In this document: one piece after another, positions 10,491 through 15,566 of the stretch
Numbering within the stretch: the stretch's first letter is position 1
Layout of the letters: each line of letters begins with the position of its first letter
NCBI GenBank assembly: GCA_000438195.1
Contig: FR903066.1
Coordinates: 55,922-119,921, forward strand
Length of the DNA stretch: 64,000 nucleotides
Source: Mycoplasma sp. CAG:776
GTDB taxonomy: Bacteria > Bacillota_I > Bacilli_A > RF39 > UBA660
Direction of reading: 5' to 3'
Notes under the pieces: generated by a model
Told to the model about the DNA's origin: nothing
The model's database searches: none
Seen by the model: only the letters and a program-made list of their open reading frames with translations
Position numbers and translations under genes: made by a program

Positions 10491-10613
10491 TTACAAAGCA
10501 TATCTTTAATACCATCTTCCATATTTATTTTTGTAGAAATAATATATTTTGTCTTAATTTTATGAGATACTACATTTGTAACAATTTTTATTGCTCTAGC
10601 ACCATCCGGAACT
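10491..10613 (-). pseudogene. Orphan C-terminal gene fragment (about 40 codons) abutting the MITE-like element
   Basis: Minus-strand frame reads PDGARAIKIVTNVVSHKIKTKYIISTKINMEDGIKDMLCK* with no start. The frame is cut exactly at the inverted-repeat end at 10611. Identity unknown. Confidence 0.3.
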
Positions 10614-10973
10614 TAAACAGTTTTAAAAACTTAAAATCCAGCAATCCTTTATGAAATAGGGATTTTTTTGTCAAATTTTACATTTTTATATTGCGTACAA
10701 TGTTATAATGGTTATATCAAAGGTTGTGATTATATATGCATATTAAAACAATCAAATCAAAAAATACTCTCCATTGTTCCATTATCAAGGACATTTAACT
10801 AATAATTTACATGAAAAATTTGGCTTTAAAACAGACTTTAAAGTTATAAGTAAAAAAATTTGTAAATCAATTAAAAAATAGAAATTGTACGCATTTTTTT
10901 ACAAACAAAAATCTCTCTAAAACCTTATAAATAGAGACTTAAGAAGATTTTACTTTCTCAAAACTGTTTAAGT
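10611..10973. mobile_element. MITE-like / internally deleted IS remnant (363 bp)
   Basis: Perfect 14-bp terminal inverted repeats ACTTAAACAGTTTT (10611-10624) and AAAACTGTTTAAGT (10960-10973). They extend into about 90 bp of imperfect TIRs with an inner 10-bp match TGCGTACAAT (10692-10701 versus 10884-10893). Inside are TATAAT (10703-10708) and a 20-codon stub MHIKTIKSKNTLHCSIIKDI* (10736-10798) that looks like a transposase N-terminus. No target-site duplication seen. Confidence 0.55.
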
Positions 10974-11130
10974 TGAAATTATACTATATTTCAGCATTTT
11001 TCAATATAGCAATACTTCAAATTTTTAAATTTAGTTTTATCTATTTGTTATTTAAATATTTAATTTACTAAATTCTTTATAATGTACTAAAATACCATAT
11101 ACAGTAAATCCAGAGGTAGAAAATGTACAT

Positions 11131-11418
11131 CTAGATTATTTTAAAAGGATTTCGTATAGTGTACTCATAGTAAATTTTTCCATCTTTCCTTCTTTTTTCA
11201 ATTATGTCTGAGTAACAAAACTCTTTTAATTCTTTAATTACATTTCTAATAGTTGTTTTTCTTTCAATGCATATACTATTTAACCCATTAAACGAACATT
11301 TCCATTCATCTGGTAGAGATAACATCATAGATAGTAATCCTTTTGCTCTTAAACTTAATCTTTTATCTTTAAAATGATAATCACTCATAACAGTATAATC
11401 TTTCTCCTTTTCTTGCAA
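11131..11418 (-). CDS. Small winged-HTH DNA-binding protein (mobile-element type)
   Basis: ...LSLRAKGLLSMMLSLPDEWKCSFNGLNSICIERKTTIRNVIKELKEF... is the pattern of HTH modules found at the N-termini of plasmid/phage replication-organiser proteins. The start is uncertain (TTG 11418 or ATG 11388). A hairpin plus T-run (about 11425-11450) separates it from the Fic gene. Confidence 0.55.
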   Translation of the reverse strand: MQEKEKDYTVMSDYHFKDKRLSLRAKGLLSMMLSLPDEWKCSFNGLNSICIERKTTIRNVIKELKEFCYSDIIEKRRKDGKIYYEYTIRNPFKII

Positions 11419-11460
11419 ACAAAAAAAGTTTATGCTTCTAACACAAACTTCTATCCTTTT

Positions 11461-12316: not shown

Positions 12317-13330
12317 TCAACAAATCATTACTTTTTCTTTAATATTTTCTTCTAATTCTATAGATAAATTAGTTAGTATTTCCTTACTACAATCAGGTTT
12401 AACTCTGTTTTTTGATTTGCTTTCAATAAGATCAAAAATTTCATTTCTATCTTTTTTTGACATTCTATTTTCGATTAAACTTATCCATGCATGTTCAAAA
12501 TAATTACAAGCCATAAAAATTAATTTCAAATTATTATCATTAGTTGCAAAAAAATATTCCCCTTCCAAATTATGTTGAATATTATCTAAAGATGATAAAT
12601 ATTGTATATCCCAAGCTTGATTTTTACATCCCTTTATAATTTTTTCGTAATTTTTAGATTTGATATTTTTAGGTGCTTTTATAGTTTTGTAATTTGTAAA
12701 TAATAATATCGCATAAGTAATATCATACTTTGATAATTGTAAACGATCATAATACCAATCTAAATATGTCAAAATTTTATCTTTAATAGACAATTCACTT
12801 AAATATATTTCTGCAATCTTTAATATAGAGCAATAACTATTCATATATAAATCACTCTTTATTTTATAATTTGCATGCCTATGAAATCCATTTGGAATAT
12901 CAATTGGCTTAAACTCATAGTTTCCAGTCATTAATTTGTTTTTAAACACCATAGTTGGTATCACTGAAAGGTAAGTCAAAATTTTATTTAATTGATTTAT
13001 AGCAATATCATTTTCTTTAAAATCCGCATATTCACATATAGACAATCCAATATTATATTGCAAACTATTTATATTACAAAATAATAAAAAAAATAAAATC
13101 ATAATCATATCAAATTCAGAATTTAGTTTACCTTTACTAAAGTAATCAAAAATCATCGAAGTCATATTTCTATCTAATATAATAACTTTCTCCTTTTTAT
13201 CTTCTAAAAATTCTTCATAATGTTCAAACTTTCCCTCTTTAAAATAATATGGATGAAAAATAATTTGAAAATCATTTACTATATCAAATATATCTTGTAA
13301 TTCGTTATCCTCTAATAATATAAAATCCAT
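12317..13330 (-). CDS. Hypothetical 337-aa protein (orphan; weak PIN-like acidic motifs)
   Basis: Long clean ORF. I prefer the start MDFILLEDNE (ATG 13330, GGTGG upstream) over the track start at 13369. No family recognised by eye. VIILDRNMTS, NQAWDIQYL and FFATNDNNL loosely resemble PIN-type acidic strands. Confidence 0.6.
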   Translation of the reverse strand: MDFILLEDNELQDIFDIVNDFQIIFHPYYFKEGKFEHYEEFLEDKKEKVIILDRNMTSMIFDYFSKGKLNSEFDMIMILFFLLFCNINSLQYNIGLSICEYADFKENDIAINQLNKILTYLSVIPTMVFKNKLMTGNYEFKPIDIPNGFHRHANYKIKSDLYMNSYCSILKIAEIYLSELSIKDKILTYLDWYYDRLQLSKYDITYAILLFTNYKTIKAPKNIKSKNYEKIIKGCKNQAWDIQYLSSLDNIQHNLEGEYFFATNDNNLKLIFMACNYFEHAWISLIENRMSKKDRNEIFDLIESKSKNRVKPDCSKEILTNLSIELEENIKEKVMIC

Positions 13331-13592
13331 CTTTACCACCACATAAATTATACCATTTAAAATGAACATTTCACATTGTATTAAAACACTTTATAAAAAT
13401 AAAATTTATTATTCAAATTATAATTACATTATTATATTACTCTTGTACCTACAAAACATCAATTTGTGGAACAAAAGTAATTTTAAATTACCGTAATTCA
13501 GGAAACTTATGAACAATTATACAGAATAACTTTAATCGCCAAATATGTATCTCCTCCTTGTAATGTTCAAAATGTAATTAATTATTTTTAAA

Positions 13593-15245
13593 CTAATCTA
13601 TATAGTTCCAAGAAAGTATCTCATTTTCAACTTTTTCAACTGTTTTCCCTAAATCATATACATCTTTAAAGTCTTCCCAATTTGATTCATTTAATATATT
13701 TCTTGCAAATTCAGTTTTGTCTCGTAAAAATTTATTACCTTCACCATTTTTTAATTTATCAATAAATTCTTCTATATTTTGAAACCTACCGAATTTTGCT
13801 CTACATTTCTCTCTACCATAATATTTTTTTAGTAATTTTTCAGGAATATAATTTTCTATTTCCCTACCCTTTGTTACCCATATTAATATTCCATTTTTTT
13901 TAGCTTCATATAATAATCTTTTTTTAGTTTTATTTAATGAACTATTAATATTTTTTTTGTCACTATCTAAAATTATAATAGCATGTCGATTCACATTCAT
14001 TAAATTAATTAATTCTTCTTCTTCTTTTAAACTAAGGTGAGATAAAAGTCTTCCTCCATAGAATACACATTGATAATCTTTACCTTCTCTTAATTCTCCT
14101 AAACTGATCATTTCTAACCATTTATTAATATAAATTCTATCAGAAGGCCCTTCAACCCAAATAATCCCATTCGATTGTAATAGATCACTAGCTTTAACTC
14201 CTAAATCATTTAATATTGAATTTTTTTGGATTTTATTAGTAATATTATGAATTATTACTTCATTATTATCTTTTTGAAGATGGAATATATTTATTAAATC
14301 ACTATTTTGATAAGCATCTAAAGTGACATTTGAATGAGTAGTAAGAAAAAATATAGCACCATCATTTGTTAATTCTTCTAAATATTTTAATAATCTCCTC
14401 TGCAAAGATGGATGTAAATTATTTTCTAACTCTTCAAATAAAAATATATAATTTGATATATTCTTTCCTTCTACGCTAGGAATTAAAATAGTATAAACAA
14501 GGACCATTAAAATAGTCTTCAATCCACTTCCTGAATTTGATAATGCAATTCTTCCTTTTCCTTCTTCTCTTAAAAAAATTTCCCATTTTGTACTAGATTC
14601 CGTATCAATTTGTTGGGTTATAATTTCTGTAAAAGTTATATCTTCGCCCATTATGTCATTCAATTTGCTAAGAAGTTTATCTCTAACCAAACTTTCATCA
14701 TACTGATTCCTATTTAGAAAGTTTGTTATTATTCTTGTAACACCATTACCATTAGAATCAACTTCCATTATATTATCATTACTTTCAGGAAAAATATTTC
14801 TTTCCGCTAAAATTCTTTTCGTAATTTTTGGCTCTATCTTTACTTTTTCTGAAATAGTACTCCATTTAGATATATGTTCTATAGGAAGCTCTTTATTATA
14901 CAATTCAAAATCACTGACTACTTGATTTTTTTTATTTAACTTTTGAAATGTAATTGTTTTTCCAATAAATTGTTTTCCATATTCATAATGATTGCCATTA
15001 ATTGAACCATTATAAATAGACGGATCAAATACGCTTTTAACTAAATCATCACTAATAATTTTAGTTAGAAAAATTCTTTCCTTAGTACCTATTGTTTTCG
15101 AACCATAAATCATTTCTAAAATATCTAAAATACTTGATTTACCAATATTATTTTTTCCAATAATAATATTAATGGGTTTTAAGCACCCTAGCTCAACGTT
15201 TTGAAAGCATTTGTAATCTATTACTTGAATTTTTTCTATATCCAT
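13593..15245 (-). CDS. OLD-family nuclease: N-terminal ABC-type ATPase fused to C-terminal Toprim domain
   Basis: Walker A GKNNIGKSS, signature-like LSNSGSGLKT, Walker B FLFEELENNLHP, H-loop LTTHS. These are followed by Toprim-type IIWVEGPSDRIYI, IILDSDKK and GREIENYIP. Confidence 0.8.
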   Translation of the reverse strand: MDIEKIQVIDYKCFQNVELGCLKPINIIIGKNNIGKSSILDILEMIYGSKTIGTKERIFLTKIISDDLVKSVFDPSIYNGSINGNHYEYGKQFIGKTITFQKLNKKNQVVSDFELYNKELPIEHISKWSTISEKVKIEPKITKRILAERNIFPESNDNIMEVDSNGNGVTRIITNFLNRNQYDESLVRDKLLSKLNDIMGEDITFTEIITQQIDTESSTKWEIFLREEGKGRIALSNSGSGLKTILMVLVYTILIPSVEGKNISNYIFLFEELENNLHPSLQRRLLKYLEELTNDGAIFFLTTHSNVTLDAYQNSDLINIFHLQKDNNEVIIHNITNKIQKNSILNDLGVKASDLLQSNGIIWVEGPSDRIYINKWLEMISLGELREGKDYQCVFYGGRLLSHLSLKEEEELINLMNVNRHAIIILDSDKKNINSSLNKTKKRLLYEAKKNGILIWVTKGREIENYIPEKLLKKYYGREKCRAKFGRFQNIEEFIDKLKNGEGNKFLRDKTEFARNILNESNWEDFKDVYDLGKTVEKVENEILSWNYID

Positions 15246-15448
15246 TTAACACCTCACTACTAAATATAAATAGTTTACGCATTTTTATGCTTGATTATCT
15301 AATCTTTATTGTTTTCATTCAATTCGTAAGCATTTTTAAATTTAATTATTTCCTTACTAAATTTTTTATACCTACATATATTTGACAAAATCTCCAAATA
15401 ATCTTATAACAATACAATTTGTTATTATTTTAAATTTACAATGCAATA

Positions 15449-15566
15449 CTAGTTATTTTCAATTATATTTTCTAATTCAAAATCAAATAAAGCATTAGCA
15501 AGAGATTCTGCCAATTTTGGAACAACGGCATTACCATATCTATTATATCTTATTTCATTTAAAATA
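15449..15566 (-). pseudogene. Remnant of the C-terminus of a DNA (cytosine-5) methyltransferase
   Basis: Minus-strand frame reads ILNEIRYNRYGNAVVPKLAESLANALFDFELENIIENN* with TAG at 15449-15451. GNAVVP is C5-MTase motif X. Nothing upstream of it survives before the permease gene at 15609. Confidence 0.6.

Follow-up and report, generated by a model that had tools for sequence, protein, structure and literature searches.

In the 64,000-nucleotide stretch of contig FR903066.1 from Mycoplasma sp. CAG:776 analysed here (the window, in whose positions all coordinates are given), a segment of about 5 kb carries four genes that encode an OLD-family nuclease (OLD), a protein of no annotated family (the orphan), a Fic-domain protein (Fic) and a small winged helix-turn-helix protein (wHTH). 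Our analysis favours, with a probability of roughly 0.72, the view that this islet is a mosaic of two unrelated mobile modules, one a Class-1-type OLD cassette and the other a block of the orphan, Fic and wHTH genes (the orphan-Fic-wHTH block), which are neighbours by accident and not partners. An earlier note on this DNA had proposed an undescribed system composed of OLD and the orphan, possibly together with Fic. Such a system is not supported, because profile hidden Markov models of named kinds match the islet's proteins (Fic is recognised over part of its length by the PADLOC profile PDC-S72 at 1.1e-83, and OLD fits the single-gene Class 1 category) and because linkage between the orphan family and OLD is not conserved, OLD adjoining the orphan only in the window's own species. 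The same note singled out the orphan as the most interesting protein of the set, a judgement that we share, except that the orphan stands alone and not as the partner of OLD.

Two probable modules meeting in one islet

The boundary between the modules is drawn by the ends of DNA homology to other contigs (the compared loci, designated by L-numbers such as L008). The orphan-Fic-wHTH block has its counterpart in L008, a metagenome-assembled genome (MAG), where orphan, Fic and wHTH are followed by a methylase and, further on, by a serine recombinase. The homology of the OLD cassette, on the other hand, reaches no further than 44 bp upstream of its gene and 6 bp downstream. What lies between these blocks is a short junction (Table 1), and the entire gap from OLD to the orphan measures 262 bp and includes a promoter-like site, as opposed to gaps of 43 bp inside the orphan-Fic-wHTH block. 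Within the junction (13507-13558, minus strand) a strong AGGAGG stands 10 nt before a TTG-initiated open reading frame (ORF) of 11 codons, which could be a leader peptide or the remaining start of a gene that was lost.

Gene neighbourhoods separate the modules as well. Homologues of OLD with 77% (L069) and 71% (L071) identity sit directly after a large serine recombinase and before a LysM gene, while the abundant group at 67-68% identity (L072-76) is placed between a NERD protein and Abi_alpha/AbiEii genes. These three independent contexts of 68-77% OLD homologues have no neighbour in common with the window, and no homologue of the orphan, Fic or wHTH was found in the three OLD contexts examined (L069/L070, L071 and L072-76). 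In L072-L076 (5120-10248) the OLD homologue begins 125 bp after a protein with NERD and Zn-ribbon domains, so that a NERD-OLD link comparable to the ATPase+NERD system HEC-02 is conceivable.

For the orphan we assembled 46 loci from GTDB species genomes, 7 metagenomic loci and 2 plasmid loci, about 50 of them independent. ORFs were called in all of these loci and searched with the four window proteins; neighbours were clustered within three genes on each side, and Pfam and PADLOC scans covered two. The co-localisation proposed for the orphan and OLD did not extend beyond the window's species: the only other ATPase matches near orphan homologues were in L059 and L060, and these are unrelated AAA ATPases (E ~1e-11) at a distance of 2-4 kb.

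These data bear directly on the idea of a two-gene system of OLD and the orphan specific to this lineage, in which the OLD ATPase would sense infection and the orphan would act as a second effector or modulator. The two genes are indeed adjacent, intact and on the same strand, they are kept together at 99.97-100% identity in those contigs of this gut Bacilli species that were read, and pairings of ABC ATPases with varied effectors are known, among them a PIN protein in the case of HEC-03 (preprint 10.1101/2024.01.29.577857). Nevertheless, we consider such a system highly improbable: no other orphan context has an adjacent OLD gene, an orphan is missing from each of the 3 OLD contexts that were examined, and the same tool returns about 6,029 OLD homologues (matches at E<=1e-10) against about 70 orphan clusters. 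Moreover, the homology blocks end between the two genes, in a gap that has a promoter-like site and ribosome-binding site (RBS) of its own, and in one sample the orphan is deleted while OLD is intact. In that sample (L015/L020, one metagenome scaffold of the same species; 4480-5416) about 110 bp of the orphan are missing, corresponding to window positions 12636-12527, with 6 bp of microhomology at the junction; the deletion removes the NQAWD and TND motifs described below and leaves OLD and Fic intact. It may represent a real null allele or an assembly artefact.

Under the two-module reading, both modules, which elsewhere ride on elements with large serine recombinases, would have been assembled here with no recombinase left behind; among the window ORFs of at least 80 amino acids (aa) there is no recombinase homologue.

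An OLD nuclease of the single-gene kind

The gene at 13593-15245 had been read as an ABC-ATPase/Toprim nuclease of OLD type, and sequence motifs, Pfam matches, an AlphaFold2 (AF2) model and fold matches together establish that it is a genuine member of this family. Pfam recognises AAA_15 (6e-21) and AAA_21 (8e-19), with OLD-like_TOPRIM appearing only below threshold. The ATPase motifs (Walker A G30-S37, signature S236-G241, Walker B E271/E272, and H304) and the Toprim residues (E365, D369, D427-S-D429, E462/E464) are invariant across 28 homologues. In the AF2 model (predicted local distance difference test, pLDDT, 86) the C-terminal domain (residues 361-457) forms a 4-strand beta/alpha fold, and the best full-length Foldseek matches in the PDB were the retron-Eco8 effector (2.6e-14), GajA (3e-14 to 1e-13) and the Thermus OLD 6p74 (2e-12); Foldseek also matched the ATPase to the heads of Rad50/SMC proteins. 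PADLOC returned many partial matches to the ATPase (GajA 3e-23, NsnB, generic AriA, PtuA, and Old 2e-14) and assigned no system. When searched alone, the C-terminal 211 residues match only PDC-M55B (7.5e-9), and the ATPase also matches PDC-M55A, such that the window protein resembles a fused version of the candidate pair PDC-M55A/PDC-M55B.

A published scheme distinguishes Class 1 OLD proteins, which are single genes, from Class 2, which occur with GajB, and Class 3, which are linked to retrons (PMC10568477); a later source also names a Class 4, and reports that the Class 1 enzymes P2 Old and Vc OLD (a nickase) defend alone (PMC12392090). We assign the window protein to the Class 1 type because its homologues are solitary, no partner is conserved and the edges of the cassette hug the gene. 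Like P2 Old, Thermus scotoductus OLD (6P74), Vibrio cholerae Vc OLD and Escherichia coli YbjD, it combines the ABC ATPase and Toprim domains in a single polypeptide of ~550 aa; these proteins likewise have no conserved partner gene, and the homologues of the window protein are also solitary cargo. Similarity to them at the level of sequence is, however, very low (phmmer matched the window protein to 6p74 at only 9e-5, at the P-loop), and the Toprim motif of the window protein reads EGPSD...DSD.

The ATPase fold is shared with Gabija, retron-Eco8, PARIS and Septu, and with GajA and Eco8 the Toprim fold is shared too. The Class 4 OLD proteins are those of PARIS. The observation that the usual partners of OLD-like proteins (GajB, AriB, PtuB) are missing from the islet was confirmed. 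There is no UvrD/PcrA/Rep-like helicase in the islet that would point to Gabija (Class 2), the neighbours of OLD being a BceB-like permease and the orphan; no reverse transcriptase (RT) ORF in the islet, and no Rfam family at 10-16 kb of the window for an msr/msd non-coding RNA, that would point to a retron (Class 3); no match to AriB or DUF4435 for PARIS, the PADLOC matches to 'AriA' being to models of generic AAA_15/AAA_21 length; and no HNH partner in the islet for Septu. Nor does a helicase, an RT with its non-coding RNA, a separate DUF4435 protein or an HNH protein adjoin OLD in the loci of its homologues. In L071 an RVT_1 gene lies 2.7 kb upstream of the OLD homologue, beyond the recombinase.

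By analogy with P2 Old and Vc OLD, the window protein would act alone, its ABC ATPase gating a two-metal Toprim nuclease that would nick or degrade replicating phage DNA.

The orphan family and its company

All homologues of the orphan begin at the window's M14, and a promoter-like site and an RBS lie inside the 350-aa frame, so we take the 337-aa form to be the protein; the promoter scan itself is uninformative in DNA of 24% GC (53 sites versus 48.5 expected). That the protein belongs to no recognisable family was seen from the outset, and Pfam, NCBIfam and PADLOC (the last at E<=0.1) were all blank. The family nevertheless is sizeable, with 71 clusters at 90% identity and at least 160 representatives at 50% identity from several phyla; the full-length members listed in two family searches are ~330-370 aa long. 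A Pfam scan of 61 close and 49 distant members gave nothing recurrent, a profile search with 126 diverse members found only unnamed or 'hypothetical' proteins, none with a Pfam domain, and the family profile matched no sequence in the PDB. Across the 126 diverse members E100 and D241 are invariant, and D53, N55, W192, N237, W240 and D265 are kept in at least 90%; the conserved residues sit in the motifs LDRN, GLAxxE, NQAWD and FATND.

Structure prediction, which the earlier note had envisaged along with a Foldseek search, produced a confident AF2 model (pLDDT 94.3; predicted template-modelling score, pTM, 0.91) with four strands, many helices and a helical insert of ~120 residues. It has no fold neighbour in the PDB (best E 0.33) or in BFVD (best E 0.064), with template-modelling scores of ~0.1-0.2. 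As a possible Toprim protein the orphan was rejected: its top Foldseek match is the C-terminal region of XccOLD, a non-significant hit, and hhalign against the OLD alignment gave nothing. For a comparison with PIN-like proteins we used Shigella VapC, whose sequence matched PDB 3TND over all 132 residues. The orphan's LDRN (at a strand end), E100 (on the helix after a strand), NQAWD (on a helix) and FATND (at a strand end) mirror in order and position the LDTN, E42, D98 and VTNN of VapC. The orphan has no statistical similarity to PIN proteins in sequence or fold, and with its 337 aa it differs from them in its long helical insert and in having only four predicted strands. We found no VapC homologue in the compared loci. 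Although speculative, a small alpha/beta core with the acidic residues D53, E100, D241 and D265 plus N55 and N237 could make up a PIN-like metal-dependent nuclease site, and the helical insert could be a sensor or regulator.

The hosts of orphan homologues among the Bacillota comprise Bacilli MAGs, Bacillus inaquosorum, Enterococcus, Paenibacillus, Brevibacillus, Lachnospiraceae, Oscillospiraceae and Ruminococcus, and beyond that phylum Bacteroidota, Ignavibacteriales, Balneolaceae and Marinicella. Two of 72,556 plasmids (Paenibacillus and Agrobacterium) carry a member, and searches of IMG/VR and of 50,697 phage genomes gave no match to the family. Most often the orphan's neighbour is a large serine recombinase (~10 of 44 loci), mostly immediately upstream and on the same strand, and others include Fic, type I and type III restriction-modification systems, KAP NTPases, RnlA/RnlB (L011), an LA2681 HEPN protein (L082) and C5 methylases (L078). 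In L001 (6426-9945) ThsB (1.6e-114) and ThsA_Macro of Thoeris stand immediately upstream of an orphan homologue of 67% identity. Such contexts mark the orphan as stand-alone cargo, carried by mobile elements and defence islands. In L008 (9565-9864) and L077 (1627-1917), ORFs of ~100 aa with an Amidase_3 domain lie directly upstream of the orphan, and in L011 (1790-2095) one lies ~6 kb upstream; their recurrence suggests a common insertion hotspot or the remnant of a prophage lysis module.

In the two-module reading the orphan would be an autonomous single-protein effector. We tentatively suggest, at less than even odds, that it may be the founder of a new family of single-gene effectors against phages or mobile elements: a metal-dependent nuclease whose fold has no detectable neighbour in PDB/BFVD, which serine-recombinase elements would have carried into Bacillota, Bacteroidota and other phyla, and which wHTH would regulate in one subfamily. 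A competing explanation, which we regard as rather unlikely, is that the orphan serves not defence but the backbone or addiction functions of serine-recombinase integrative/conjugative elements, for instance as a maintenance nuclease or in entry exclusion or anti-restriction. The position of the orphan directly downstream of large serine recombinases in ~10 loci would suit this explanation. So would a homologue of 30% identity in L006 (7102-9427), which is embedded in a conjugative type IV secretion system (T4SS) operon between TrbL_2 (VirB6-like) and PrgI, and an orphan homologue in L003 that survives between core genes, adjoining a truncated recombinase. It also draws on one distant member of 400 aa (P0209), in which an N-terminal Phd/YefM antitoxin domain (Pfam 6e-9) is fused to the orphan-like domain, a fusion that hints that some relatives behave as toxins of toxin-antitoxin-like modules. 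Against it, many copies reside in defence islands that have no recombinase or transfer genes (L001, L011, L078 and L082), the order of the orphan relative to the recombinase varies, and 1 of the 126 family members, a distant one, matches the PADLOC defence candidate PDC-S19 at 2.2e-40, a profile to which the window orphan itself has no match. Just downstream of the orphan homologue in L006 there is also a group II intron RT.

The third protein had been described as a Fic protein with a degenerate catalytic motif, and this agrees with both the Pfam match (4.8e-9; 37.4 bits against a cut-off of 24) and the motif itself, HPFQEGNTRTTA, which departs from HxFx(D/E)GNGRxxR by the change of Gly8 to Thr and of Arg12 to Ala. 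As the second Gly and the final Arg are absent, AMPylation is not to be assumed. The protein also matches phrog_12747 (6.6e-36) and, weakly, SoFic (1.7e-6). Its match to PDC-S72 is strong (279 bits), yet it spans profile positions 12-269, or 258 of 377, and lacks the C-terminal third. PDC systems are a set of 145 untested candidates obtained by 'guilt by embedding' (preprint 10.1101/2024.01.29.577857), among which PDC-S72 is defined as a single-gene Fic candidate (PADLOC-DB; same preprint). The small wHTH is confirmed more weakly (HTH_36 2.7e-4; N-terminus of replication initiators, phrog_4707, 1e-17), and in sequence it resembles the N-terminal DNA-binding domains of phage and plasmid replication initiators, to which it may be related.

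Small stand-alone homologues of wHTH accompany orphan homologues, either adjacent or close by, in L008, L077, L011 and L023-25, and a remnant is present in L078. In the orphan group at 63% identity (L011, L023-25) there is no Fic, and wHTH lies immediately upstream of the orphan. In L077, a relative at 83% identity, a recombinase and an Amidase_3 fragment come first, and they are followed in turn by the orphan, a remnant of Fic, DUF3800, a gene of 271 aa, Metallophos, wHTH and HsdM. From these layouts and that of L008 we conclude that wHTH tracks the orphan in this subfamily whereas Fic is exchangeable. The interval from orphan to wHTH in L077 (2089-6589) behaves like a slot in which cargo is swapped.

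These layouts also weigh on whether orphan and Fic are a functional unit with wHTH as its regulator, the orphan controlling or complementing the Fic enzyme. Fic is the commonest neighbour of the orphan after recombinases, and the whole block was co-transferred at 89% identity with its 43-bp spacing. Furthermore, Fic genes of three unrelated families directly adjoin orphan homologues, with both gene orders represented, albeit in only 3 independent cases: the window with L008 (HPFQEGNTR), L001 (HPFIDGNGR), where a Fic with canonical motif and an HTH_17 domain starts 8 bp after the orphan homologue, and L030 (HPFREGNGR), whose orphan is ~32% identical. It is for this adjacency in three unrelated families that we keep a functional unit as a minority alternative, an unlikely one given that more than 40 of the ~50 orphan contexts are without Fic, that L077 has retained orphan and wHTH with other cargo in the place of all but a remnant of Fic, and that PDC-S72 is defined as a single-gene candidate. 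In the two-module reading, Fic would be a toxin-like modifier of PDC-S72 type with an altered motif, a swappable piece of cargo beside the orphan, and wHTH would be a local transcription regulator of the block.

Several points weigh against the two-module reading or its parts. That the adjacency of OLD and orphan is not conserved elsewhere, a matter of sequence comparison, does not prove that the two never cooperate in this species, and the recurrence of Fic beside orphans in three Fic families may be more than co-occurrence in islands. The association with recombinases, together with the copy in a T4SS operon, could mean a function in mobile elements and not in defence. The putative PIN-like site is read entirely from the order of the motifs and from predicted secondary structure. 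Aligned to VapC (3TND) by hhalign, the family profile reached a probability of 0.1%, and 0.4% once the helical insert had been excised, with only LDRN aligned to LDTN, and no PIN structure appeared in the Foldseek results of the orphan. Finally, the islet is invariant across the species' contigs that were read, so recent mobility is not demonstrated, and no relative free of the islet was found among contigs with an identical ASCH protein.

Edges, flanks and meaning of the islet

Table 1. Features of the islet and its edges, in window coordinates.
Feature	Position	Strand	Remarks
Open frame without start codon	10491-10613	-	41 codons
Segment bounded by inverted repeat	10610-10974	.	365 bp; arms 10610-10638 and 10946-10974
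Orphan-Fic-wHTH block	10977-13440	-	89.4% DNA identity to L008 (MAG GCA_037308675.1), no OLD there
wHTH, small winged helix-turn-helix protein	11131-11418	-	95 aa, or 85 aa from ATG
Fic-domain protein, PDC-S72 type	11461-12273	-	270 aa; motif HPFQEGNTRTTA; strong AGGAGG RBS
Orphan, predicted enzyme of unannotated family	12317-13330	-	337 aa; start at 13369 (350 aa) unlikely
Promoter-like site GTGAAA-16-TG-TATAAT and GGTGG RBS before the 13330 start	13336-13374	-	consensus match only
Junction between the two modules	13441-13586	.	146 bp; unique to the window species, absent from both donor-like loci
OLD cassette common to other genomes	13587-15289	-	blastn: L069/L070 79.5% over 1711 bp; L071 75%
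OLD, stand-alone Class-1-type nuclease	13593-15245	-	550 aa; N-terminal ABC ATPase, C-terminal Toprim
Possible C-terminal relic of a C5 DNA methyltransferase	15449-15592	-	47-codon open frame ending ...YGNAVVPKLAESLANAL...

The four minus-strand ORFs, whose intactness and positions are as first described (Table 1), are flanked by a BceAB-like pump (17567-15609) on one side and by an ASCH gene (10407-9997) on the other. A terminator-like hairpin (15602-15570) follows the pump gene, and the flanks include two response-regulator/histidine-kinase pairs and a second ABC_tran+FtsX pump, in keeping with the BceRS/BceAB-like neighbourhood that had been recognised there. With a GC content of 0.20-0.27 the segment is not distinguishable from its surroundings. 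The same island is present in all 24 of the longest contigs with an identical OLD protein, and the contigs with an identical ASCH protein all carry it, with the exception of one that ends inside the segment bounded by the inverted repeat; eight copies that were compared are 99.97-100% identical in DNA.

The debris described in the earlier note could be verified only weakly. The supposed C5 methyltransferase tail resembles motif X: the frame ending ...RYGNAVVPKLAESLANAL... aligns to motif X at the C-terminus of the L008 C5 methyltransferase and is, by eye, like the methyltransferases of L078. Statistical support is missing, as YGNAVVPKLAESLANAL aligned to QIGNAVPPLLAKAIADEI at the L008 C-terminus at only E=22, and the frame had no significant match in Pfam, the PDB, phage tblastn or local BLAST. 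For the headless gene tail at the other edge, an open frame does exist, but it shows no similarity in Pfam, phage tblastn or local BLAST and its length alone is unremarkable.

The terminal inverted repeat of the proposed miniature inverted-repeat transposable element (MITE) does exist (15 bp perfect, 29 nt at 86%), and it is the sole perfect inverted repeat of at least 15 bp in the window with arms within 500 bp of each other, although 23% of composition-preserving shuffles hold one. The term MITE-like is unproven, because an equal repeat arises in that share of shuffles, because the element is single-copy (in the window, all compared loci, plasmids and JGI metagenomes) and because no target-site duplication is visible. 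The RNA fold of the segment has a z of -3.2. A distance of 3 bp separates its outer end from the point where homology to L008 stops, one contig is broken within the segment, and the segment may mark a junction. Within it (10650-10672) a short hairpin, AATCCTTTATGAAATAGGGATT, is followed by a T-run on the plus strand, resembling an intrinsic terminator with no plus-strand gene upstream. The only Rfam or ARAGORN features in the 64 kb of the window are a T-box leader (34303-34482, minus strand, 110 bits) and a tRNA-Arg(CCT) (28166-28242, plus strand), both of them distant from the islet.

Taken as a whole, the view of this segment as a defence-type island is supported, in that its cargo is accessory, horizontally acquired and of defence type. 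The fall of the proposed system of OLD with a partner saves effort on a false lead, and the locus adds a divergent example, from a low-GC Firmicute, to the stand-alone Class 1 OLD proteins, a class only recently shown to defend alone. The novelty that remains is the orphan family, which is unannotated, confidently modelled, equipped with catalytic-looking residues, without structural or Pfam relatives, and at home in both defence islands and mobile elements. The family is open to direct testing, as homologues occur in strains that can be cultured (Bacillus inaquosorum KCTC 13429, Enterococcus raffinosus DSM 5633 and Ruminococcus callidus ATCC 27760).

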